From sequence record OQ349392.1: DNA of 64,000 bases, one strand, 5' to 3'. Shown here piece after piece: positions 4,685-21,395 of the stretch; positions within the stretch are counted from its first letter, which is position 1, and each line of letters starts with the position of its first letter. Below the pieces are notes generated by a model. That model was not told the DNA's origin, did no database searches, and saw only the letters and a list, made by a program, of their open reading frames with translations. The translations under genes were made by a program, and so were the position numbers. Origin of the DNA: Escherichia phage KIT06.

Positions 4685-4943
4685 AGATATTAAGGGTTAT
4701 AAGCCACATACTGAAGAGAAAATCGGTAAAGTGAATGCTATCAAAGATGCTGAAGTTCGTTTAGGACTTATCTTTGATGCTTTATATGATGAATTCTGGG
4801 AAGCACTAGATAATTGTGAAGACTGTGAATTCGCGAAGAATTATGCTGAAAGCCTTGATCAGTTAACTATTGCTAAAACTAAACTCAAAGAAGCCAGTAT
4901 GTGGGCTTGTCGTGCTGTGTTCCAACCAGAGGAAAAATATTAA
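4677..4943 (+). CDS. hypothetical protein
   Basis: 88-aa acidic ORF in vs.x region; short overlap with neighbours. Confidence 0.45.
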
Positions 4944-5221
4944 TGGCTCAATTAAGCGCAGGGTTTGGTTATGAGTATTATACTGCCCCTCGTCGTGTAT
5001 CTGTTGCTCCTAAGAAAATTCAAAGTCTTGATGATTTCCAGGAAGTAATTCGTAACGCTTTCCAGGACTATGCGCGTTATCTTAAAGAAGATTCACAGGA
5101 CTGTCTCGAAGAAGATGAAATTGCTTACTATGAGCAGCGTCTTGAACAGCTTAAAAACTTACATGAGGTTCGTGCAGAAGTTTCAAAGTCTATGAATAAA
5201 TTGATTAGATTTAAAGAATAA
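4943..5221 (+). CDS. hypothetical protein
   Basis: 92 aa from first ATG (ORF track 4901 is a non-ATG start); TAATG overlap. Confidence 0.45.
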
Positions 5222-5223
5222 CT

Positions 5224-5253
5224 GTTTACTTTTCCTCTTGACTGTGGTATAAT
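5224..5253 (+). promoter_or_regulatory. T4 early promoter upstream of regB
   Basis: GTTTAC 5224-5229, 18-nt spacer, TGGTATAAT with TATAAT at 5248-5253; SD GAGGAG then ATG 5281. Confidence 0.6.
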
Positions 5254-5280
5254 TTTTCTATCAGTTAAGAGGAGAATAAC

Positions 5281-5742
5281 ATGACTATCAACACAGAAGT
5301 TTTTATCCGTCGAAATAAGCTCCGTCGTCACTTTGAGTCGGAGTTTCGTCAAATTAACAATGAGATTCGTGAGGCATCAAAAGCAGCAGGGGTCTCATCG
5401 TTTCATCTAAAATATTCTCAGCATCTTCTTGATCGTGCAATTCAACGGGAGATTGATGAGACATATGTTTTTGAATTATTCCATAAAATAAAAGACCATG
5501 TTTTAGAAGTTAATGAATTCCTGAATATGCCTCCACGCCCTGACATTGACGAGGATTTTATTGATGGGATTGAATATCGTCCTGGGCGTTTAGAAATCAC
5601 AGATGGAAATCTTTGGCTTGGATTTACAGTTTGTAAACCTAATGCGAAGTTCAAAGACCCGTCGCTTCAATGCAGGATGGCAATTATCAACAGTCGTCGT
5701 TTACCGGGAAAGGCTTCTAAGGCAGTAATTAAAACTCAATGA
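5281..5742 (+). CDS. regB: RegB site-specific endoribonuclease
   Basis: 153 aa, same length as T4 RegB; sequence recognised (MTINTEVFIRRNKLRR...); own early promoter. Confidence 0.9.
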   Translation: MTINTEVFIRRNKLRRHFESEFRQINNEIREASKAAGVSSFHLKYSQHLLDRAIQREIDETYVFELFHKIKDHVLEVNEFLNMPPRPDIDEDFIDGIEYRPGRLEITDGNLWLGFTVCKPNAKFKDPSLQCRMAIINSRRLPGKASKAVIKTQ

Positions 5743-5749
5743 GGTAAGC

Positions 5750-6295
5750 ATGAGAAAAGCACTACTCGCTGGTCTATTGGCCATTTCTATGATGGCACAT
5801 AGCTCCGAGCATACTTTCAGTAATGTCCAACTCGATAACATGCGTTACGCGTATCAATTCGGGGAACAATTTTCTAAGGATGGAAAATATAAAACACACA
5901 AAAATATCCACAAGAGCGGATTAGGTCATATAATGGCTGCTATTTTATGGCAAGAAAGCTCTGCCGGAGTTAATTTAAAATCTAAACCAAAGCATCATGC
6001 CTACGGAATGTTCCAAAATTATTTGCCGACCATGCGCGCAAGAGTTAAGGAACTTGGTTATAATATGACCGATGCCGAAATAAAAAGAATGTTGAATAAA
6101 CGGTCCAATTCAGCTTCCTGGGCGTACATTGAACTTTCTTATTGGTTAAATATACATAAGGGCGATATAAGAAAAGCAATATCCTCTTATAATTCGGGAT
6201 GGAATGTTAAAGCAGGTTCTAAATATGCTTCTGAAGTCCTAGAAAAGGCTAACTACCTTAAAAATAATAAACTGTTGGAAATAGTAAATGACTAA
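5750..6295 (+). CDS. secreted lytic-transglycosylase-like protein (vs.1 position)
   Basis: Signal peptide MRKALLAGLLAISMMAHS; SLT-like motifs WQESS and SYNSGWN. Confidence 0.55.
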   Translation: MRKALLAGLLAISMMAHSSEHTFSNVQLDNMRYAYQFGEQFSKDGKYKTHKNIHKSGLGHIMAAILWQESSAGVNLKSKPKHHAYGMFQNYLPTMRARVKELGYNMTDAEIKRMLNKRSNSASWAYIELSYWLNIHKGDIRKAISSYNSGWNVKAGSKYASEVLEKANYLKNNKLLEIVND

Positions 6296-6629
6296 AATTT
6301 TGGTTTTATGTGTAGGATTAATTTCATTTTCTGCGTTAGCAGATATATCATATTCTGAAGTTAGAGAGTATGTAAACCGTACTGCCGCGGATTATTGTGG
6401 GAAAAATAAAGCATGCCAAGCTGAATTTGCGCAGAAATTAATATATGCATATAAAGACGGAGAAAGAGATAAATCAAGTAGATACAAGAACGATACTTTA
6501 TTAAAACGATATGCTAAAAAGTGGAATACCTTAGAATGTTCAGTTGCGGAGGAGAAAGATAAAGCCGCTTGTCATTCAATGGTTGACCGTTTAGTAGATT
6601 CTTATAATCGAGGATTGAGTACTAGATGA
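6288..6629 (+). CDS. small secreted protein (vs position)
   Basis: 113 aa, signal peptide MTKILVLCVGLISFSALA, several Cys; position corresponds to T4 vs but identity not verified. Confidence 0.45.
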   Translation: MTKILVLCVGLISFSALADISYSEVREYVNRTAADYCGKNKACQAEFAQKLIYAYKDGERDKSSRYKNDTLLKRYAKKWNTLECSVAEEKDKAACHSMVDRLVDSYNRGLSTR

Positions 6630-7105
6630 TTGTAAAATATATCAAGGGCGATATTGTCGCCCTATTTCTTCAAGGTAATATTATTGCGCACGGGTGCAAT
6701 TGTTTTCATACTATGGGTTCAGGTGTAGCAGGTCAATTAGCAAGGGCCTATCCTAAAATTTTAGAAATAGATAAAACTACTACCGAGTACGGTTCTCGCG
6801 ATAAATTAGGCGATATGTCTATTGTTTTTAAACATAGTCCTACGGGATTTGGTATATGCTATAACCTGTATACGCAATACGAACCGGGTCCTAATCTTGA
6901 TTATGGTGCTTTAGTAAACTGCATGATAGAATTAAATCTACAGGCAGAGACCCTTTTGTTTAAACCAGTAATTTACATTCCACGCATAGGTTGCGGTATT
7001 GCTGGCGGTGATTGGGATAAGGTTTCTAAATTAATCGATATGTTTACTCCTGATATTGATTTAATAGTGGTGGATTATGAAAGTACATTACCCGCATCCG
7101 TTTGA
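6626..7105 (+). CDS. macro-domain protein (ADP-ribose binding/hydrolase-like)
   Basis: 159 aa; KGDIVALFLQGNIIAHGCNCFHTMGSGVAGQL and IPRIGCGIAGGDW match macro-domain glycine-rich loops. Confidence 0.6.
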   Translation: MIVKYIKGDIVALFLQGNIIAHGCNCFHTMGSGVAGQLARAYPKILEIDKTTTEYGSRDKLGDMSIVFKHSPTGFGICYNLYTQYEPGPNLDYGALVNCMIELNLQAETLLFKPVIYIPRIGCGIAGGDWDKVSKLIDMFTPDIDLIVVDYESTLPASV

Positions 7106-7289
7106 TCCTAAAAACAAAGCGGAAATTATTCGTCAATGGGAACGCATTTGCCGTACTAAATGCCCAATTAATAGTTCTCATGATGTAGATAAAGATTATA
7201 TTGGAACATTCGTTGAATATACCTTTATTGATAGGAAAGGTCGTAAACAACATGTAGAAGAATATTGCTTAAAGGTTACATGGTTATGA
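7077..7289 (+). CDS. hypothetical protein
   Basis: 70-aa ORF between macro-domain gene and tk, overlaps neighbours. Confidence 0.4.
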   Translation: MKVHYPHPFDPKNKAEIIRQWERICRTKCPINSSHDVDKDYIGTFVEYTFIDRKGRKQHVEEYCLKVTWL

Positions 7290-7471
7290 GTCTGAGTAAA
7301 GAACAAAAAGATAAATTGTTTGAGCTTATCCATGAACTTCTAGATGAGCATACAGAAGCAAACACCTTTTATGATGAATACGGCCCGCTATCTCCCGAAC
7401 AGCAAGAAGAATTTGCTGACCGGTTTGATAAGAAAGAAAACGAATTAATAGCTTATGTGAATACGCTTTAA
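7280..7471 (+). CDS. hypothetical protein
   Basis: 63 aa from ATG 7280 (ORF track 7265 is TTG); acidic. Confidence 0.4.
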   Translation: MVMSLSKEQKDKLFELIHELLDEHTEANTFYDEYGPLSPEQQEEFADRFDKKENELIAYVNTL

Positions 7472-7480
7472 GAAGGTGAT

Positions 7481-8062
7481 ATGGCGAGTTTAATTTTTAC
7501 TTATGCAGCAATGAATGCTGGAAAATCTGCTTCTCTTTTGACTGCTGCGCATAATTATAAAGAACGCGGAATGGGTGTATTAGTTCTTAAACCTGCTATT
7601 GATACTCGCGATTCTGTCTGTGAAGTCGTTTCTCGCATTGGAATTAAGCAGGAAGCGAATATTATTACGGATGATATGGATATTTTTGAGTTCTATAAAT
7701 GGGCTGAAGCACAAAAAGATATTCATTGCGTATTTGTAGATGAAGCTCAGTTTTTAAAAACTGAACAGGTGCATCAATTAAGCCGAATTGTCGATACATA
7801 CAATGTTCCTGTTATGGCTTATGGTCTAAGGACTGATTTCGCTGGAAAATTATTTGAAGGTTCTAAAGAACTTTTGGCGATTGCAGATAAACTTATTGAA
7901 CTAAAGGCAGTTTGTCATTGCGGTAAAAAAGCGATTATGACGGCTCGATTAATGGAAGATGGAACACCAGTTAAAGAAGGTAATCAAATCTGTATTGGTG
8001 ATGAAATTTATGTTTCTTTGTGCAGAAAACATTGGAATGAATTAACTAAAAAGCTCGGTTAG
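7481..8062 (+). CDS. tk: thymidine kinase
   Basis: 193 aa, same as T4 Tk; P-loop AAMNAGKS, zinc-ribbon CHCGKKA...C; SD AAGGTG. Confidence 0.95.
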   Translation: MASLIFTYAAMNAGKSASLLTAAHNYKERGMGVLVLKPAIDTRDSVCEVVSRIGIKQEANIITDDMDIFEFYKWAEAQKDIHCVFVDEAQFLKTEQVHQLSRIVDTYNVPVMAYGLRTDFAGKLFEGSKELLAIADKLIELKAVCHCGKKAIMTARLMEDGTPVKEGNQICIGDEIYVSLCRKHWNELTKKLG

Positions 8063-8104
8063 TGCAAAAGTTATAAATAGGTTTATCTAACTAAAGGGGT
8101 ATAT

Positions 8105-8317
8105 ATGCTACAATTAACTGAAAAGCAACTTCGCAATCTTACTGTTCTTCAATTAGATGAAATTCGTAGGGAAGTTGGAAATATCATTTCAGCTTTGCGT
8201 CGAGAAGTATCACTCAACCAATCTCCGGCAGACTATACTAGATTGCGAAATTTTGAAAAATACCTTGATAAAGTTAAGGCCGTGCATCGGCACAAAGTAA
8301 ATACAGGACAAAAATGA
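8105..8317 (+). CDS. hypothetical protein (rI.1 position)
   Basis: 70-aa ORF between tk and rI; TATAAATA late-promoter-like motif at 8072-8079 upstream. Confidence 0.5.
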
Positions 8318-8329
8318 TAGGAGGCCTTT

Positions 8330-8623
8330 ATGGCCTTAAAAGCAACGGCACTATTTGCCATGCTAGGATTAGCGTTTGCTTTATCTCCACCGATTGAAGC
8401 GAATGTCGATCCTCATTTTGATAAATTTATGGAATCTGGCATTAGACATGTTTATATGCTTTTTGAAAATAAAAGCGTAGAATCATCTGAACAGTTCTAT
8501 AGTTTTATGCGAACGACCTATAAAAATGACCCGTGCTCTTCCGATTTTGAATGTATAGAGCGAGGCGCGGAGATGGCACAATCATACGCTAGAATTATGA
8601 ACATTAAATTGGAGACTGAATGA
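8330..8623 (+). CDS. rI: lysis inhibition regulator RI
   Basis: 97 aa; signal anchor MALKATALFAMLGLAFALSP and remainder near-identical to T4 RI as recalled. Confidence 0.9.
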   Translation: MALKATALFAMLGLAFALSPPIEANVDPHFDKFMESGIRHVYMLFENKSVESSEQFYSFMRTTYKNDPCSSDFECIERGAEMAQSYARIMNIKLETE

Positions 8624-9006
8624 AATTCAGCGACTTTTCACAAAGTGGAAAACCTTCAAAGGCAGATGAATACTTAGGTTTATTAATGGCTGCACAAGCT
8701 TATTTTCATTCTGCACATTTTGAAACTAAAAGTTATGCTAGACACAAAGCATACGATTTTATTTTCTCTGAGTTGCCAGATTTGATTGATAAATTTGGTG
8801 AGCAATATTTGGGGTATTCTGGTAGAAAATACACACCTTCTATTCCAGATGCCAGTAAACTTCCTACCGACACAATTAAAATGATTGATCGCATATTAGA
8901 CCAATCTAACAGCATTTACAAAGAAATGCCTCCAGCCATTCAAAGCACGATAGATGATATTACTGGAATGTTTTATCAAAGTAAATATCTTCTTTCCCTC
9001 GAATAA
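8620..9006 (+). CDS. hypothetical protein (rI.-1 position)
   Basis: 128-aa ORF, ATGA overlap with rI stop, followed by terminator. Confidence 0.55.
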
Positions 9007-13434: not shown

Positions 13435-13470
13435 TACCCTATCAAAACAAATGTGAAATTGGAGAATAAA

Positions 13471-14439
13471 ATGAAAACTGTAACTATCAATAAGGGTATC
13501 TACTTCGGTAAAGAAATCTCTGGAACTTTTGAGCTTTTAGGCGAATGGTTCCCAGATAATGCTCCGGTAGATGCACAAGGAGATGGTAAAGTTTTTGTTG
13601 AAATTGACGGTAAACGTCGCGGTGTTTGGGTTTACAAATCAGATATTTCATATGATGGTGTAAAAGTTGAAGAAGTTAAAGAATCATATGAAGATATGAA
13701 AACCCGCATTAATAAAAGATTTAATGTTATGGGAATGATGACGAATGGTATTATTAACGGAAATATTCGTTCATTGATTATCTCTGGCGCAGCAGGTATT
13801 GGTAAAACGTATTCTTTAGATAAAGCTTTAAATAAAGCAAATGATATTGGATACATTGAATATAAAAGCATTAATGGTAAAATCTCTGGTATTGGTCTTT
13901 ATGAACAGCTTTGGAATAATCGTGAAGAGAATTCTGTCCTTTTGATTGATGATGTGGATGTTTTCTCTGATATGGACATTCTTAATCTTCTAAAAGCTGC
14001 TCTGGACACTGGAGAGACCCGTAAAGTCTGCTGGAGCACTGCATCTTCTTACTTAGAAGAAAAAGGCATTGACCGTGAGTTTGAATTTAAAGGAACGATT
14101 GTTTTTATCACAAACGTTGACATTGACCGCGAATTAGACCGTGGTACTAAACTTGCCCCACACTTACAAGCATTAGTGTCCCGCTCAGTTTATTTGGATT
14201 TGGGTGTTCACACTAATGAAGAAATTATGGTCAGGGTTGAAGATGTTATTCTTTCAACTGACATGATGCAAAAGCGCGGTCTTTCTGATGAAGAAACTTA
14301 TAAAGCATTATCATGGATGAAAGTTAATGTTAATCGTTTACGCAATGTTTCACTGCGTACTGCTCTTTATCTTGCTGACTTTATTATGACCGACAAAAAC
14401 GGTTGGGAAGAAATTGCTGAGGTTACTCTTCTGAAATAA
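13471..14439 (+). CDS. AAA+-type ATPase
   Basis: 322 aa from ATG 13471; Walker A ISGAAGIGKTYS, Walker B VLLIDDVD; SD GGAGAA. Confidence 0.6.
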   Translation: MKTVTINKGIYFGKEISGTFELLGEWFPDNAPVDAQGDGKVFVEIDGKRRGVWVYKSDISYDGVKVEEVKESYEDMKTRINKRFNVMGMMTNGIINGNIRSLIISGAAGIGKTYSLDKALNKANDIGYIEYKSINGKISGIGLYEQLWNNREENSVLLIDDVDVFSDMDILNLLKAALDTGETRKVCWSTASSYLEEKGIDREFEFKGTIVFITNVDIDRELDRGTKLAPHLQALVSRSVYLDLGVHTNEEIMVRVEDVILSTDMMQKRGLSDEETYKALSWMKVNVNRLRNVSLRTALYLADFIMTDKNGWEEIAEVTLLK

Positions 14440-14903: not shown

Positions 14904-15431
14904 ATGAACGCTAAAGATATTTTCAACTTGGTAAATTACAATGATGGTAAATTTAAATCTGAAGCACAGAGTAAGTTCTTTAATGACATCTCAATCGGAG
15001 GTGAAATCACTGTTGATGGAGGACAAATTTACAAATCCCGTTGGAATTGGATCGTTATTATTGATGAGATTGGTATTGTAGAAATTTACAAGAATACGAA
15101 TAAAAATCGTACATTACACTGGTCTCGTGATACTAACGAACAGTACAAAAAGGATAAAGCATCTAAATTATCTCGTGTAACTCAAGAAGATATTGAGTTC
15201 ATCAAGAAAGATATTTTAATGTATGATAACTTAATTGCTGAAGAGCAAGCTGTTATTGATAAATTTGATGAGATTAAAGCTTCTCGTGAAATTCCTGATT
15301 TTATGAAAGAATCAGTAAATGAACGATACACTCTCATTTCAGAGCGTATTGAAACTTACAAAAAGCAAAGAGCTGAACGCCAAAATACTCTTCGGAAGTT
15401 TGAAGAACGGTTAAAGACGGTACTCGCATAA
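14904..15431 (+). CDS. hypothetical protein
   Basis: 175-aa ORF with SD GGAGGAA, charged coiled-coil-like C-terminus. Confidence 0.5.
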   Translation: MNAKDIFNLVNYNDGKFKSEAQSKFFNDISIGGEITVDGGQIYKSRWNWIVIIDEIGIVEIYKNTNKNRTLHWSRDTNEQYKKDKASKLSRVTQEDIEFIKKDILMYDNLIAEEQAVIDKFDEIKASREIPDFMKESVNERYTLISERIETYKKQRAERQNTLRKFEERLKTVLA

Positions 15432-15486
15432 CCGCTTTATACCAAGGATGGTATAATGGTTCTAAGCCCTTTTAATTGAGATTATT

Positions 15487-15894
15487 ATGAAACAGTTGAT
15501 AATTAAAAGATTGAATTTATTGATATGTTGTTTATGTGTAGTAGTTGCATACGGTTATTATGCTATTAATGATTATATGCATTATAAAGATTATGATGTT
15601 ACTGTAGTTAATACCATTACAGGAACACAAGGAAAAGGGTCTAGTTTATCGTTTATTGCCGTATATGAACTTAAAGACGGTTATAGATTTAGTGAATATA
15701 TTTCCCCAGAGATGTATTCTTCAATAGAAAAAGGTGATAATATTACTGTAAGTTTACGTCCTTTCGACGTAAAACAGACACTGTTTGATAATATTGTTTG
15801 GTTCTTTGGGATGGTATTAGTTCAATCTGTGTGCGGTGCTTATGTAGTCTGTTCCATCTTATTCTGTATATTTAGTAAAATTGAAATTGAGTGA
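15487..15894 (+). CDS. hypothetical membrane protein
   Basis: 135 aa, N-terminal and C-terminal hydrophobic helices. Confidence 0.5.
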   Translation: MKQLIIKRLNLLICCLCVVVAYGYYAINDYMHYKDYDVTVVNTITGTQGKGSSLSFIAVYELKDGYRFSEYISPEMYSSIEKGDNITVSLRPFDVKQTLFDNIVWFFGMVLVQSVCGAYVVCSILFCIFSKIEIE

Positions 15895-15901
15895 GGAAAA
15901 T

Positions 15902-16792
15902 ATGTCAGTAGTAATTAATAATGTCAATGCAGTAATTAAATCTTTAGTTAATAAAAAAATGATGAATGAATGGACTGTATTTCGTCGTGGAGAGCCAGAT
16001 AAATTTTTTCATAGATTTAACCCAACTTTGGATTTGAATGTTATCGACAAAGATGTTCATGCAGAAATTTTAGATAAGTTTAAAGTTGATATTGGATTTG
16101 GATTAGAAAAACATTTACAGCGAACAACCGGGTCTGGAATGAGTTTATCTAATCGCATTATGAAAGCCCTTAATAAAATTGGAGCGTTGTCTCGTATTAA
16201 TGCGAGTGAAATTCTTCGTAATTATAATAAAGGATATGACCTTTATGGTCGACTAATGCCGAAATTATCATTCGATCAAATGATTGCGGATTTGTGGGAA
16301 AATCAACGACGATTATTAGCATTAGGCGCTCGATTAGCTAAAGGTCTAGATAAACAAATGATTTTTAAGACCAATAATACAGAAGACCTTAAATGCTTTA
16401 AATTTAGTATTCGTGGAGATGATTATTACATCAGAGCTCGCTCTACCGATTATATTAATATGGGACATCATCTCTGTTTAGCTTTTGAAGTTTTAAAAGA
16501 AGCTGGAACACTAGAATATTCATCTGGTGCAAAATGCCCTATTGGTTCAAGTTGTATTTTAATTTATCGCCCGGATGAATCTAGTTCAACTAAATTGCCT
16601 ACAAAACCTGTACCGGTTCGTAGTAACGAAAAACATTCTGAACAAATTGATTATTTTAATAAGCAGATTGAAGAGCTGAATATTTCTATTCAACAATATG
16701 ATGATGAAATTTTCAGACTATCTGGATTGAGTAGTAAAGCTAAATCTGAGCGTGAAAAGTTAATTAAAATTGTTGATTTACTTAAATCTTAA
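15902..16792 (+). CDS. hypothetical protein with C-terminal coiled coil (paralog family member 1)
   Basis: 296 aa from ATG 15902, SD GAGGAAAA; C-terminal heptad-like segment. Confidence 0.5.
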   Translation: MSVVINNVNAVIKSLVNKKMMNEWTVFRRGEPDKFFHRFNPTLDLNVIDKDVHAEILDKFKVDIGFGLEKHLQRTTGSGMSLSNRIMKALNKIGALSRINASEILRNYNKGYDLYGRLMPKLSFDQMIADLWENQRRLLALGARLAKGLDKQMIFKTNNTEDLKCFKFSIRGDDYYIRARSTDYINMGHHLCLAFEVLKEAGTLEYSSGAKCPIGSSCILIYRPDESSSTKLPTKPVPVRSNEKHSEQIDYFNKQIEELNISIQQYDDEIFRLSGLSSKAKSEREKLIKIVDLLKS

Positions 16793-16800
16793 GGAACACC

Positions 16801-17829
16801 ATGAAAACTCGTTCTCAAATTGAAGATATGGTTCGTACTGCCAGTGATACTCGTAATGTTATGACATTTTTGTGTGAAAATAATTTAGACCCTGATAAAG
16901 TTAATCGTGTTATTCATCACTTTAAGTATACGAATAGCAGTGAATGGGTGCGTAATTTTAGTAAAGCGGGTTATATTACACAAATGACTGCTCGTGAGCA
17001 ACTCACCGATTTCTGTAAAACTATTGATTATAAAAATCCTCTATTTGTTCAAGGCGTTGGTCAAAGTAAGGTCGATTTATCATCTGGATTTTTCAATCCA
17101 AATCATTATCGTATTGAATGGAGATTTATTGCTCTGTTCCGTAGACAATTAAAGCAAATTTTATCAACTGCGAGTCGATTAAAAGGTTCTGATATTAATT
17201 TAAAGAATCTGAAATTTGATGGTTATACTCTTCAGATGGAAGTAAGACCATTAAAAGAAAATAATAGAACTGCACGAATTAGCTTTAAACCTAATACAAA
17301 AAATTCTCTTTCAATTTGCGAATGCCTTAAATCGCAGTTGACAGAAGCATTTAAGTATATGGATGTTGTTGCCGCTGTTCAGTCTAAGATTTTACCTCGT
17401 TTTGAGCGATTTAAATTAGACACAACAACATATGAACTTGATATGATCGTTTCATTTAAATACGATTTTTTGAGAAAGGATGAAGTCACGCAAGAGAAAA
17501 AGCAAGAAGTGCAAGATAACTTAAATTTAAATTTATCCAATTACTCATCAAACGACCCTAAATTTTGGATGTATAGCTCAAGCAATATAGATGCATGTAA
17601 ACTTAATAAAGTGAGTTTTCTTCCTACTGAAAATTCAAATTTTAAACCTGTAGAAAAATGGCACGCTGACGCGATTGAGAAGTCTCTTGAGGCAGTAGAT
17701 GATGAACTCGTTAAAGCGACCAATGAAGTGCTAGAAGCTGAAAAGGTGTTAGAACAAGCTCAGTCAAGGGTTCAAAATCTGACAAAGCAACGTTCTAAAC
17801 TGAACAATGCACTAAATGCACTGAACTAG
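16801..17829 (+). CDS. hypothetical protein with C-terminal coiled coil (paralog family member 2)
   Basis: 342 aa; C-terminus EAEKVLEQAQSRVQNLTKQRSKLNNALNALN. Confidence 0.5.
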   Translation: MKTRSQIEDMVRTASDTRNVMTFLCENNLDPDKVNRVIHHFKYTNSSEWVRNFSKAGYITQMTAREQLTDFCKTIDYKNPLFVQGVGQSKVDLSSGFFNPNHYRIEWRFIALFRRQLKQILSTASRLKGSDINLKNLKFDGYTLQMEVRPLKENNRTARISFKPNTKNSLSICECLKSQLTEAFKYMDVVAAVQSKILPRFERFKLDTTTYELDMIVSFKYDFLRKDEVTQEKKQEVQDNLNLNLSNYSSNDPKFWMYSSSNIDACKLNKVSFLPTENSNFKPVEKWHADAIEKSLEAVDDELVKATNEVLEAEKVLEQAQSRVQNLTKQRSKLNNALNALN

Positions 17830-17858
17830 TTTACTTTGCCACAAGGATGTGGTATAAT
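17829..17858 (+). promoter_or_regulatory. T4 early promoter
   Basis: GTTTAC 17829-17834, TGGTATAAT with TATAAT 17853-17858; near-identical copy at 63946-63975. Confidence 0.65.
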
Positions 17859-17886
17859 GTTCTTACTTTCTACTGAGGAGATTAAT

Positions 17887-18888
17887 ATGACTCGTAACGA
17901 ATATATCAAATCATTCAATAGTGTTATTGATGATAAAGCTATACCGATGTTTGGCCAAAATAGCGTTCTTTCTATTATCAATCAATGGCTCAATAGTGTT
18001 GATGCAGGTATTGTTTCTTCTACTAAATTTATTCATGAAATTCGTAAAATTTCTAGTCGTGTAGATAAAGATGTTATCAAGAAAACCTTTAAAGAGTCTC
18101 GTCTTCTTTCATATTTGGTTAATCGGGATATTCTTGGTAATTTTGGGAAAGAAATTAAACGAACCAAAGATGTAGTAGGATATAATTGGTTCGGTGATGT
18201 TAATTCTTATCATCTTAATAATAAAGAAGACCCTGAGAATATTTTTACTCGTCGTTGGATTAGTAATTTCAGACTTTTCAAAGGACAGATTCTAAAATCA
18301 GCTTCTAAATTATGTTATGGCGATTATCGTCAAATTCATCCTTTGGCTTCTGATATGATTATCATAAAAGAATATGAACTTGATAAAAATAAAGTATCTA
18401 TTTTTGTGAATTATGGATTTTTTACACCAGAAACTAACCAAAAGAATATTAATAAATTTTTCTCAATTGCTAGCACTATAACTCGTCAATTAGAAACCGC
18501 ATTACTTTGTATGGAAACGGTAGAAAATATTCATACTTATCCTTTTAAGAATATGTGTGGTTGGGAAGGATATAAAATTATAATTAGCCTTCGTGAAGTG
18601 AAATGCGCTTATTCACCGACTGATAAAGAAATTTACCAACAAAAATGTGATGAAATTGTGAATACTCCTAAAGAAGAAACTACCCTTGAAGAACTAATGG
18701 ATAATCTTGACGATTCGCCTGAACCGATAGAAATTCGTCCAGAAGTTATTGCACTAGAAAAAGCTTATAAAGAAGTTCTAGAAATTTCTAATAAAGCGCA
18801 GAAAGAATATGAGAAGGCTAAAAGGATTTGGGAAGAATCTGTTAATCGTCTGGATCGTCTTGAACAAGCTTTACAGCTAATTAAGTAA
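17887..18888 (+). CDS. hypothetical protein with C-terminal coiled coil (paralog family member 3)
   Basis: 333 aa from ATG 17887, SD GAGGAG; ORF track 17836 start lies inside the promoter. Confidence 0.5.
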   Translation: MTRNEYIKSFNSVIDDKAIPMFGQNSVLSIINQWLNSVDAGIVSSTKFIHEIRKISSRVDKDVIKKTFKESRLLSYLVNRDILGNFGKEIKRTKDVVGYNWFGDVNSYHLNNKEDPENIFTRRWISNFRLFKGQILKSASKLCYGDYRQIHPLASDMIIIKEYELDKNKVSIFVNYGFFTPETNQKNINKFFSIASTITRQLETALLCMETVENIHTYPFKNMCGWEGYKIIISLREVKCAYSPTDKEIYQQKCDEIVNTPKEETTLEELMDNLDDSPEPIEIRPEVIALEKAYKEVLEISNKAQKEYEKAKRIWEESVNRLDRLEQALQLIK

Positions 18889-18940
18889 TTTAAAGCCAAG
18901 GATGGCTCGGAGTATAAATCATTAACCAAATGAGAAGAAC

Positions 18941-19870
18941 ATGAAAACTCGTAAACATTATATTGATTATTTTGATAGTCTTATTACTAAACACCGTAAT
19001 TATCAGATCGGACACAGAGCAGTAATCAATAATATTCTTCGTGATTTCCTTCAATATGTTGGCCAGGAAAATCATATCTGTAAAGATACACAGAACGCTT
19101 ATTCTCATTCGTTGGGCAATTTGCTTCAATGGTTTAAACGTTCTCGTATGTTATCTTCTACTGTAGCTCGCGATAACATTAAAAACTTTATGAAGCCGAG
19201 TTTTATTAAATCTGCGACATCTATAACTGATTTGGTTGAATTTACTATTGTTAACGATGTTAAAAAGACCCATTTGGCTGATTGGCTATCTACCATTCCT
19301 GAAACTAAATTTGCTGATAAATTTGCCTGTCAATTTAATGACCAAGTGAATATGCTTTTTAAGCATGCTCGTAAACTATTTACCGCAGGCGATGACCGTA
19401 CAAATACAGTTCATGTTAAGGACTGGGTTATTGCTGATGAAGTAACACACAAGCCAGGTGGTTCATCAGTATTAATTAATATCCAGGTTCCTTATTATTA
19501 CTCACGTAATCTCGGCACCATGACAGCTAGAGAAATTAATAAGCACAACAAAACTATTCGTTCGTTGTCTTATAAACTCCGCATGATGCTAAAAATTATG
19601 GACGTAGTGGAAATGTATGACGAAACCGAAGATAACGGTTCAATGTTATACAGTTCACGCATTCTAATTAAACTGAAGAACCCTAATACATATAAGACAG
19701 TTGTAAAAGAGCCTAAAGTAGAAAAGATTGATAACTTGAGCGAAGAACGTGAATATCTCAATGCTCGCTTAATTGAAGTTGAATCCCAGATTGCCGAACA
19801 CACCAAATTGTTAAAAGCTCTTAATGCAAAAGCAAATGGTTTACGCAATGCTATTGAGGTATTGAAATGA
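18941..19870 (+). CDS. hypothetical protein with C-terminal coiled coil (paralog family member 4)
   Basis: 309 aa; C-terminus [37 protein letters not shown]. Confidence 0.5.
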   Translation: MKTRKHYIDYFDSLITKHRNYQIGHRAVINNILRDFLQYVGQENHICKDTQNAYSHSLGNLLQWFKRSRMLSSTVARDNIKNFMKPSFIKSATSITDLVEFTIVNDVKKTHLADWLSTIPETKFADKFACQFNDQVNMLFKHARKLFTAGDDRTNTVHVKDWVIADEVTHKPGGSSVLINIQVPYYYSRNLGTMTAREINKHNKTIRSLSYKLRMMLKIMDVVEMYDETEDNGSMLYSSRILIKLKNPNTYKTVVKEPKVEKIDNLSEEREYLNARLIEVESQIAEHTKLLKALNAKANGLRNAIEVLK

Positions 19871-20184
19871 AAAAGCGTCTATTAGAAGATATTGCAGCTT
19901 CAAGTAATTCCAGTCTAATTAAAATTATTATGGCTGGTGAAGAAGACGATCTGGAAATGCGTGGAAAGATTCATGGTTGCGATGATTTAGACTTTAAACC
20001 TCCAGCCTGGGATGCCATTATGGTTATGGTTGAACGCCGCGAAAGGGCTTCTAAGAATGTTCCGAACTGCCCAAAATGTGGTACTGAACAGGTTCAATTA
20101 ATTCATTGGCAGACTAGTAATCTTCGTTATAAATGTCGTCATTGCAAACACCGATTTAACCGAGAAGAAAATGACCAAGCGTAA
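19867..20184 (+). CDS. zinc-ribbon protein
   Basis: 105 aa; CPKCG...18 aa...CRHCKH four-Cys zinc ribbon. Confidence 0.5.
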
Positions 20185-20413
20185 AGAATATATGGAGATT
20201 GCTGAAAAGGCAGTCCGCGAATTAGCAATAGCTTATTATTATGAACATGGTAAATTTCCTGATAGATACAGCGTGCTTAAATCTGCTTTAACTCGTTCAT
20301 ATAAAAATATGCTATCAGAAGTAAGTGATATTATATACAAACATAAAGAACAAACAGGTCAAAGTCTTGATTACGACGAGACTTTTAAACAAGTACTAGG
20401 AATTAAGGAATAA
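20171..20413 (+). CDS. hypothetical protein (nrdC.1 position)
   Basis: 80-aa ORF immediately upstream of nrdC. Confidence 0.45.
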
Positions 20414-20414
20414 T

Positions 20415-20678
20415 ATGTTTAAAGTATATGGTTATGATAGCAGCATCCATAAATGTGTGTATTGCGATAATGCAAAACGTCTTTTGACTGTGAAGAAACA
20501 GCCGTTTGAATTTATCAACATTATGCCGGAAAAAGGTGTTTTTGATGATGAGAAAATCGCTGAGCTTCTAACTAAACTGGGTCGTGATACTCAAATTGGT
20601 TTGACAATGCCACAAGTATTTGCTCCTGATGGAAGTCATATTGGTGGATTTGACCAATTGCGGGAATACTTTAAATGA
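20415..20678 (+). CDS. nrdC: phage thioredoxin/glutaredoxin NrdC
   Basis: 87 aa, same as T4 NrdC; active site CVYC in MFKVYGYDSSIHKCVYCDNAKRLL. Confidence 0.88.
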   Translation: MFKVYGYDSSIHKCVYCDNAKRLLTVKKQPFEFINIMPEKGVFDDEKIAELLTKLGRDTQIGLTMPQVFAPDGSHIGGFDQLREYFK

Positions 20679-20890
20679 TGCTCGAAGGAACTGATTATAT
20701 CCATGACTACCGCGGAAGCTCGGTATATGTAGGTGATGAGGTTGCAGTTTATTACGGGTATGGAACTTTGATGACAGCAAAGGTTATTCAAATTAAAAAT
20801 AATCGTGCTAAACTCGAAGTTTATTATTCTAACGGTGAAAAGTCTATTTCTAAATGGAAATACGGCGATTGCATGGTCAAACTGGGGTAA
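20675..20890 (+). CDS. hypothetical protein
   Basis: 71-aa ORF, ATGA overlap with nrdC. Confidence 0.45.
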   Translation: MMLEGTDYIHDYRGSSVYVGDEVAVYYGYGTLMTAKVIQIKNNRAKLEVYYSNGEKSISKWKYGDCMVKLG

Positions 20891-21074: not shown

Positions 21075-21395
21075 ATGAATATTGAAAATAAATTAGATGT
21101 TGATGCAGTTCTGAGTGAAATCATCGAAGACCATGATGCATTTTCAGAAAATTATGATTTCGATTTTTCGGATTATCTTAAACCTGTCGAAATAGAAGAT
21201 TGGGTACAAGATGGCAAATGCCAATATCGGAAGTGCGTTTATTTTAGTCCGAAACATAATGTACATGTTTCCGTAAATGAATCTCGCTCAGGTTCTTACC
21301 ATTCTGACTGGTATTATGCAGTTCCAACTGTTGAACTAGTCGAGCCTCGTGAACGCGTAGTAACTCAGACAATACGAGAATGGATTACGCTATAA
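21075..21395 (+). CDS. hypothetical protein
   Basis: 106-aa ORF, SD GGTGA. Confidence 0.45.
   Translation: MNIENKLDVDAVLSEIIEDHDAFSENYDFDFSDYLKPVEIEDWVQDGKCQYRKCVYFSPKHNVHVSVNESRSGSYHSDWYYAVPTVELVEPRERVVTQTIREWITL

Follow-up and report, generated by a model that had tools for sequence, protein, structure and literature searches.

A tandem set of four diverged paralogues in the nrdC region of a T4-like phage: one known and three candidate counter-defence genes

T4 is the best-studied virulent phage, yet roughly half of its genes lack an assigned function. The described gene closest to those considered here is its accessory gene nrdC.5. Srikant et al. (2022) found that an evolved T4 clone carrying deletions was unable to plate on ECOR17 and that disruption of dsr1 restored plating; dsr1 on a plasmid protected MG1655 against this clone, and T4 nrdC.5 provided in trans restored infection (PMC9391042). 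According to a 2026 preprint, Dsr1 recognises phage major capsid proteins through its TPR sensor (PMC12803255). In this work, we analyzed a stretch of 64,000 nucleotides (nt) from Escherichia phage KIT06 (sequence record OQ349392.1), hereafter called the window, and specifically an array of four genes at 15902-19870. A preliminary description of this DNA had singled out the array as four consecutive open reading frames (ORFs) of similar size, starting at 15902, 16801, 17887 and 18941; it had suggested a check for homologues among the T4 nrdC.x genes and had assigned no function. All four ORFs lie on the plus strand, their sizes are similar indeed, and the check is positive: judged by sequence and gene order, they are the orthologues of the T4 early-type genes nrdC.6, nrdC.5, nrdC.4 and nrdC.3, as follows (lengths in amino acids, aa).

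15902-16792, plus strand: nrdC.6 orthologue, 296 aa, the most diverged member of the family (synteny; phrog_2257, E 3e-152)
16801-17829, plus strand: nrdC.5 orthologue, 342 aa, Pfam DUF7235 (PF23882 over its full length, E 1e-118; phrog_2351)
17887-18888, plus strand: nrdC.4 orthologue, 333 aa (phrog_1435, E 3e-168)
18941-19870, plus strand: nrdC.3 orthologue, 309 aa, a Tequatrovirus-specific duplicate of nrdC.4 (phrog_1435, E 1e-116)

The orthology follows from the gene-for-gene synteny with ime09 and with the T4 annotation, together with the sequences themselves. The interval 15400-20700 shares 96-97% identity with Shigella phage TB004 and with many genomes of the genus Tequatrovirus, a degree of likeness by which the window is assigned to a T4-like phage of this genus. 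Compared with T4, nrdC.4 and nrdC.6 are 97% identical, nrdC.5 is 94-95% identical and nrdC.3 is 61% identical. The window NrdC.5 corresponds to T4 NrdC.5 not only in this identity but also in its position between nrdC.6 and nrdC.4 and in its full-length match to PF23882 (score 396.8 bits, cut-off 30; profile positions 1-307 aligned with residues 1-342). The other three window genes, in contrast, are paralogues of T4 NrdC.5, at 25% identity or less, and fall into other Pfam families: PF26897 is found on nrdC.4 homologues and PF26899 on nrdC.6 homologues. Likewise, in PHROGs nrdC.4 and nrdC.3 share phrog_1435, and nrdC.6 and nrdC.5 are placed in separate phrogs. The anti-Dsr1 activity has been shown for the T4 nrdC.5 allele, of which the window copy is the orthologue. 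The earlier statement that no function could be assigned therefore has to be withdrawn for nrdC.5, since its T4 counterpart counteracts Dsr1 (PMC9391042), and stands for the other three genes.

The four genes are related to one another, with a certainty that differs along the array: the paralogy of nrdC.3 and nrdC.4 is established, that of nrdC.5 with these two is very likely, and that of nrdC.6 with the rest is likely. The array members are 10-25% identical to one another, and BLASTP, which is too insensitive for the remaining pairs, finds a single significant one, nrdC.4 with nrdC.3 (25% identity over 231 aa, E 8e-8), in keeping with the earlier remark that the N-terminal domains are diverged. 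With hhalign, the same pair reaches a probability of 98% (E 1e-13), nrdC.5 matches nrdC.4 at 66% (E 5e-5; 69% and E 4e-5 with the tails removed), and nrdC.5 matches the merged profile of nrdC.4 and nrdC.3 at 91% (E 1e-6) over 176 collinear columns; the pairwise comparison of profiles and structures proposed in the preliminary description thus came out in favor of paralogy. For nrdC.6 the probability remains below 15% with each single family and rises to 47% (E 2e-4) with the merged profile of nrdC.5, nrdC.4 and nrdC.3, the alignment coinciding with two motifs common to all four proteins. Motif 1 has the pattern [FL]-K-x-[SG]-x-[LI]-[ST]-x3-[AN]-[RS]-[DE]-x-[LI]-x-[ND]-[FY]-x-K, and motif 2, at the end of a long helix, A-[SR]-[RK]-L-x(1-3)-G-x(0-1)-D. 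Their positions, obtained with hhalign for NrdC.6, are these:

16169-16237, plus strand: motif 1 in NrdC.6, LNKIGALSRINASEILRNYNKGY
16957-17025, plus strand: motif 1 equivalent in NrdC.5
18088-18156, plus strand: motif 1 equivalent in NrdC.4
19133-19201, plus strand: motif 1 equivalent in NrdC.3
16301-16357, plus strand: motif 2 in NrdC.6, NQRRLLALGARLAKGLDKQ, located on the central domain's long helix
17140-17196, plus strand: motif 2 equivalent in NrdC.5
18274-18330, plus strand: motif 2 equivalent in NrdC.4
19343-19399, plus strand: motif 2 equivalent in NrdC.3

The signal sits in the globular parts of the proteins, and hhalign with the tails only gave no significant similarity among the array genes, so that homology cannot be proven by the tails. 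At the DNA level, the search for repeats between the array genes, as traces of recent gene conversion or unequal crossing-over, returned only matches of 14-23 nt, a size expected by chance, so that no recent gene conversion has taken place within the array.

The tails are nevertheless the most conspicuous common trait. The preliminary description had each ORF ending in a heptad-like segment of about 35 residues and quoted one such peptide, which is the C-terminus of the fourth ORF. We scored heptads in the last 50 residues (hydrophobic residues at a/d, polar ones elsewhere, proline and glycine penalized) of all 79 non-nested plus-strand ORFs of the window with a length of 90 aa or more. The five highest scores are those of the four array genes and nrdC.8 (0.55-0.77, against a median of 0.08); the heptad tails are far from chance and the coiled-coil observation is real. 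The segments proved to be longer than first described, forming heptad helices of 47-55 residues:

16625-16789, plus strand: heptad helix of NrdC.6, aa 242-296, score 0.74, AlphaFold2 helices 242-273 and 278-295
17665-17826, plus strand: heptad helix of NrdC.5, aa 289-342, score 0.77, the highest of the 79 ORFs, C-terminal L-x-x-A-L-x-x-L-N
18739-18885, plus strand: heptad helix of NrdC.4, aa 285-333, score 0.55-0.61, AlphaFold2 single helix 285-332, C-terminal L-x-x-A-L-x-x-I-K
19727-19867, plus strand: heptad helix of NrdC.3, aa 263-309, score 0.69, C-terminal L-x-x-A-I-x-x-L-K

The terminal motif L-x-x-A-[LI]-x-x-[LI]-K/N is common to NrdC.5, NrdC.4 and NrdC.3 and absent from other window ORFs, NrdC.6 having a looser form of it. 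The AlphaFold2 models of NrdC.4 and NrdC.6 agree with the scores in giving long C-terminal helices, one of 48 aa without interruption in NrdC.4 and two of 32 and 18 aa in NrdC.6. Two genes upstream of the array, nrdC.8 (14904-15431, 175 aa) has the fourth-best heptad tail of the window and a related terminal motif. As a candidate fifth member of the family it was rejected: the probability of profile similarity to the four genes is at most 1.1% for the N-terminal parts and at most 4.5% for the tails, and it is 99-100% conserved in Tequatrovirus.

The AlphaFold2 models, built with family alignments (mean predicted local distance difference test score, pLDDT, of 83.5 for NrdC.4 and 75.8 for NrdC.6), suggest a likeness over the whole protein. 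In NrdC.4, six N-terminal helices are followed by an alpha/beta domain (88-235) and the terminal helix. Inspection of the order of elements, rather than superposition, shows the same succession in both models: six helices, a small beta meander (reduced in NrdC.6), a long helix bearing motif 2 (119-142 in NrdC.4, 124-145 in NrdC.6), a beta hairpin, a helix, a second beta hairpin, a linker and the terminal helix. Furthermore, Foldseek searches of BFVD match the two models to the same five full-length, uncharacterized Straboviridae proteins (E 2e-7 to 5e-4), from Enterobacter phage IME523, Pectobacterium phage PM2, Acinetobacter phages Acj9 and Acj61, and Klebsiella phage Mineola. These results bear on the possibility that NrdC.6 has no relation to the others beyond a similar size and that its coiled coil arose independently, which would leave a family of three members. 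The pairwise hhalign values, the dissimilarity of the tails and the 40 residues with pLDDT below 50 in the NrdC.6 model would all fit such an origin, whereas the merged-profile match falls exactly on the two motifs that the other three proteins conserve, and NrdC.6 keeps both the order of secondary structure and the five neighbours held in common with NrdC.4; we regard an independent origin as very unlikely. Altogether, the four proteins appear to follow one modular plan, consisting of a helical N-terminal domain that varies, an alpha/beta domain in the centre, a flexible linker and a conserved amphipathic helix of 47-55 residues.

The family appears to extend well beyond Tequatrovirus. The NrdC.4 model has 18 matches in BFVD at E below 1e-3, including two short NrdC.4 fragments; the remaining ones are proteins of 228-374 aa with 10-18% identity, all from T4-like phages, whose hosts are Escherichia, Yersinia, Klebsiella, Serratia, Erwinia, Pectobacterium, Enterobacter and Acinetobacter. 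Searched exhaustively by HMMER with the nrdC.4/nrdC.3 profile, 1.84 billion representative proteins gave nine clusters, none of them beyond the NrdC.4/NrdC.3 family. Only the fold search recovered the Straboviridae relatives, and the wider family is thus out of reach of sequence searches. Among these relatives, Acj61p120 and Acj61p121 (330 and 304 aa) are encoded by tandem genes between nrdC.10 and nrdC, that is, at the same locus as the array, and their tails end in L-x-K-A-L, which recalls the terminal motif of the array proteins. The presence of this pair at the same locus, together with the 10-18% identity of the fold matches, indicates that the tandem array is old and that its members diverge unusually fast.

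The central domain also resembles in fold, without sequence similarity, the tail terminator and tail-completion proteins lambda gpU, SPP1 gp17-like and T5 p142. This raises the possibility that it mimics such a protein and that the array products are early decoys, occupying immune sensors of structural proteins without activating them. We consider this improbable. The likeness has Z below 8 at 4-13% identity, alpha/beta sandwiches are common and ribosomal proteins and nitroreductases score alike, searches found no sequence similarity to tail proteins, and Dsr1 is reported to be triggered by the major capsid protein rather than by a tail protein (PMC12803255). NrdC.4 differs from gpU-like proteins in its additional N-terminal helical and C-terminal coiled-coil modules, and its gene belongs to a set of dispensable genes with an early promoter rather than to a late tail module; the convincing fold match and the late tail module that would mark a tail terminator were both missing. 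In a broader version of the same idea, which strikes us as a long shot, NrdC.3 to NrdC.6 would be modular immune decoys throughout Straboviridae, the tail-terminator-like central domains and hypervariable N-terminal domains occupying sensor sites and the C-terminal helix assembling the paralogues into multivalent traps, possibly as mixed oligomers. By analogy with what has been reported for Dsr1 and Avs7, the targets of such decoys may be receptors that sense phage structural proteins.

The array is also set apart from its surroundings by its variation among phages. When the window is compared with other Tequatrovirus genomes, nrdC.10, nrdC.8, nrdC and 49, which flank the array, are 99-100% identical, with nonsynonymous divergence (dN) of at most 0.01, and the array genes have dN of 0.007-0.057, 2-5 times that of these four. 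Three allele classes of nrdC.3 were found, with about 97, 78 and 61% identity, T4 carrying the 61% class. On one viral contig nrdC.4 is frameshifted, and on two Tequatrovirus-like IMG/VR contigs (4925-8666) the array has three genes, without nrdC.4: NrdC.6 of 331 aa (33% identical to that of the window), a NrdC.5-like protein of 319 aa (24%) and NrdC.3 of 316 aa; here a nrdC.7-like membrane protein has been relocated downstream of nrdC.2. Loci of Gaprivervirus and Dhakavirus type possess nrdC.6, a nrdC.5 that is 25-27% identical, and nrdC.4, and lack nrdC.3. In nrdC.6, nrdC.5 and nrdC.4, variability within Tequatrovirus is lowest in the terminal helix and highest in residues ~20-60 and in the linker; the N-terminal domain of nrdC.3 varies slightly less than its terminal helix.

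Several individual records illustrate how these genes change. The natural hybrid ORF P0056 (299 aa) joins NrdC.5 residues ~146-268 to NrdC.3 from about residue 136, which implies a deletion that removed nrdC.4 and fused its neighbours out of register. In the NrdC.6 of Shigella phage Sf25 (378 aa), about 82 residues (IRAHSTDY...QIEEL) directly ahead of the coiled-coil tail are duplicated in tandem and in frame. In the T4 reference (NC_000866, 4300-4510, corresponding approximately to window 16680-16792), nrdC.6 is annotated with 275 aa owing to a one-base frame change: the tail is replaced by ...IFLFNNMMMKFSDYLD, and the intact tail ISIQQYDDEIFRLSGLSSKAKSEREKLIKIVDLLKS can be read in another frame. 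The window nrdC.6, in contrast, is intact and has its coiled-coil tail. The frame change of the T4 reference is either a mutation of the laboratory strain or a sequencing error. Some family members carry the label of E. coli, Salmonella, Enterococcus or Bacillus; these lie mostly on contigs of ~165-171 kb, the size of T4-like phage genomes, and are probably phage DNA in bacterial assemblies rather than bacterial homologues.

Taken together, we favor the reading that the array is a set of counter-defence paralogues, with a probability of roughly 0.55; for nrdC.5 this role comes from the literature, and for nrdC.3, nrdC.4 and nrdC.6 we infer it. Apart from the role of nrdC.5, the raised dN and the variability between phages, this reading draws on an early promoter, on dispensability and on a nearby counter-defence gene:

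17830-17858, plus strand: T4 early-type promoter, GTTTAC-N17-TATAAT with an extended -10 TG, found by consensus scan
21075-21395: homologue of gp49.2

The promoter, placed at 17829 in the preliminary description and there ascribed to one of the four genes, precedes nrdC.4, and the annotation of phage SA20RB marks a T4 early promoter at this very site; the promoter would drive nrdC.4, nrdC.3 and the genes downstream. Similar early-promoter sites precede nrdC.10 and nrdC.8. The start of nrdC.4 at the ATG at 17857, given in the ime09 and SA20RB records (343 aa), was discarded: this ATG lies inside the -10 element of the gene's own promoter, whereas the start at 17887 follows GAGGAG and yields the 333 aa of T4. 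As for dispensability, viable T4 mutants without nrdC.1 to nrdC.6 have been reported (PMC9825161). In turn, a 2026 report describes gp49.2 of phage T6 as inhibiting the defence nuclease OLD (PMC13096335), and since both nrdC.5 and the gp49.2 homologue are found there, the block from nrdC.6 to pin holds at least two published counter-defence genes.

The mechanism that we propose has the following form. The four old and strongly diverged paralogues would encode soluble early proteins built on one plan, in which the terminal amphipathic helix most likely forms a coiled coil that oligomerizes the protein. The proteins would most likely act as stoichiometric binders, neutralizing host anti-phage immune proteins by direct contact early in infection, the variable part providing recognition and the constant helix oligomerization. 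NrdC.5 would thereby neutralize the SIR2 NADase Dsr1, and NrdC.3, NrdC.4 and NrdC.6 would neutralize other systems. Through duplication, divergence, replacement of alleles and loss of genes, the set would become adapted to the defences that local hosts carry.

Alternatively, the four genes may be paralogues of which only NrdC.5 has a counter-defence role, the others serving accessory roles such as host takeover, competition between phages or, by way of the helical N-terminal domain, the binding of nucleic acids. Other accessory roles would indeed fit, as the functional evidence is confined to nrdC.5, and at 10-25% identity the functions of paralogues may have drifted. In NrdC.3, residues 30-87 (19028-19201) weakly resemble the N-terminal SAM-like core-binding domain found in tyrosine recombinases, below threshold (PF02899, E 0.065; NF001399, E 0.0013). 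These matches lie far under the curated cut-offs (18 bits against 279), possibly reflecting a mere resemblance between helical bundles, and all four genes share the traits of known T4 counter-defence genes, namely that they are expressed early, can be dispensed with and vary strongly at a locus that is itself conserved. A division of this kind, with NrdC.5 as the sole immune inhibitor, seems to us rather unlikely.

Several observations weigh against the counter-defence reading of the whole array. The functional evidence concerns nrdC.5 among the four genes, and as its orthologues in the other genera are only 25-27% identical, the anti-Dsr1 activity may not be general. Our literature follow-up found no paper on the mechanism of nrdC.5 against Dsr1 and none mentioning DUF7235. 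PADLOC, run on the four proteins, returned a coiled-coil-type match to BrxC of 12.8 bits and no defence-family assignment, and the sequence searches of NCBIfam and PDB gave nothing above threshold, with designed helical repeats, SEC10/PgrA and XerD among the sub-threshold matches. The structural comparison covers the NrdC.4 and NrdC.6 models alone, and the link of nrdC.6 to the family depends on moderate-confidence models and transitive structural matches with low TM-scores (0.41-0.50). Finally, the gene-wide ratio of nonsynonymous to synonymous divergence (dN/dS) of the array genes is ~0.05-0.25, well below 1, and lacks the gene-wide signature of an arms race. Such values rule out gene-wide positive selection as stated and point instead to relaxed constraint: constraint on the array is relaxed, and positive selection is not demonstrable gene-wide. 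The earlier view of a diversifying paralogue family consequently holds in its paralogy, its rapid divergence and its turnover by alleles, loss, frameshift and fusion, and is not shown as regards diversifying selection, dN/dS not exceeding 1.

Regarding the surroundings, nrdC.7 and nrdC.8 lie upstream of the array, and nrdC.2, nrdC.1 and nrdC downstream, the last being the following ORF:

20415-20678: the true NrdC, a thioredoxin of 87 aa

Many database records give the label thioredoxin to the array genes themselves. It finds no support, since none of the four proteins has a Pfam thioredoxin or glutaredoxin match or a CxxC motif. No transmembrane segment was found in the four proteins either. 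The variability ascribed earlier to this part of the genome is real, and its designation as the rI-nrdC region has to be corrected, as the T4 region is that from nrdC to nrdC.11/mobD, with rI further upstream. Further up in the window, the very conserved nrdC.10 (13453-14439, 322-328 aa) has a Walker A motif and weak matches, below the Pfam cut-offs, to nucleoside triphosphatases of AAA/STAND type.

The genes themselves are already known as T4 accessory genes and the role of nrdC.5 has been published. What appears to be new is the union of PF23882, PF26897 and PF26899 in one fast-evolving superfamily, its plan of three modules and its conserved tandem position across Straboviridae; the result argues for these three Pfam families forming one clan. 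Besides, nrdC.3, nrdC.4 and nrdC.6 appear as diverged copies of the one gene of the block with a known role, the anti-Dsr1 gene nrdC.5, and the same protein design is met at the same locus across the family of phages. Four hypothetical proteins thereby become testable candidate immune inhibitors with a defined modular plan, whose variable part suggests the site of target specificity and whose constant helix suggests a shared mechanism of assembly. Should the counter-defence role fail for the other three genes, a clean annotation of known T4 accessory genes, mislabelled in many records, would still stand.

Compared with described systems, the array is not a system of a new kind; what it offers is a good, testable lead towards three candidate immune inhibitors. 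Its relatives in other Straboviridae, namely Acj61p120 and Acj61p121, E5EPQ6 of Acj9, A0A0A0PZG4 of PM2 and A0A2Z4QAR2 of Mineola, are uncharacterized proteins of 300-370 aa that match both models structurally over their full length, and they differ from the array proteins in their 10-18% identity, in being invisible to HMMER and in a copy number that varies by genus. Outside the family, NrdC.5 and DSAD1 of SPbeta-group phages have no sequence relation (a PDB search with the NrdC.5 profile gave two chance matches only), and their targets, Dsr1 and DSR2, and the host clades differ. The working analogy for NrdC.5 is nonetheless DSAD1, which is reported to block the defence-associated sirtuin DSR2 by binding to it.

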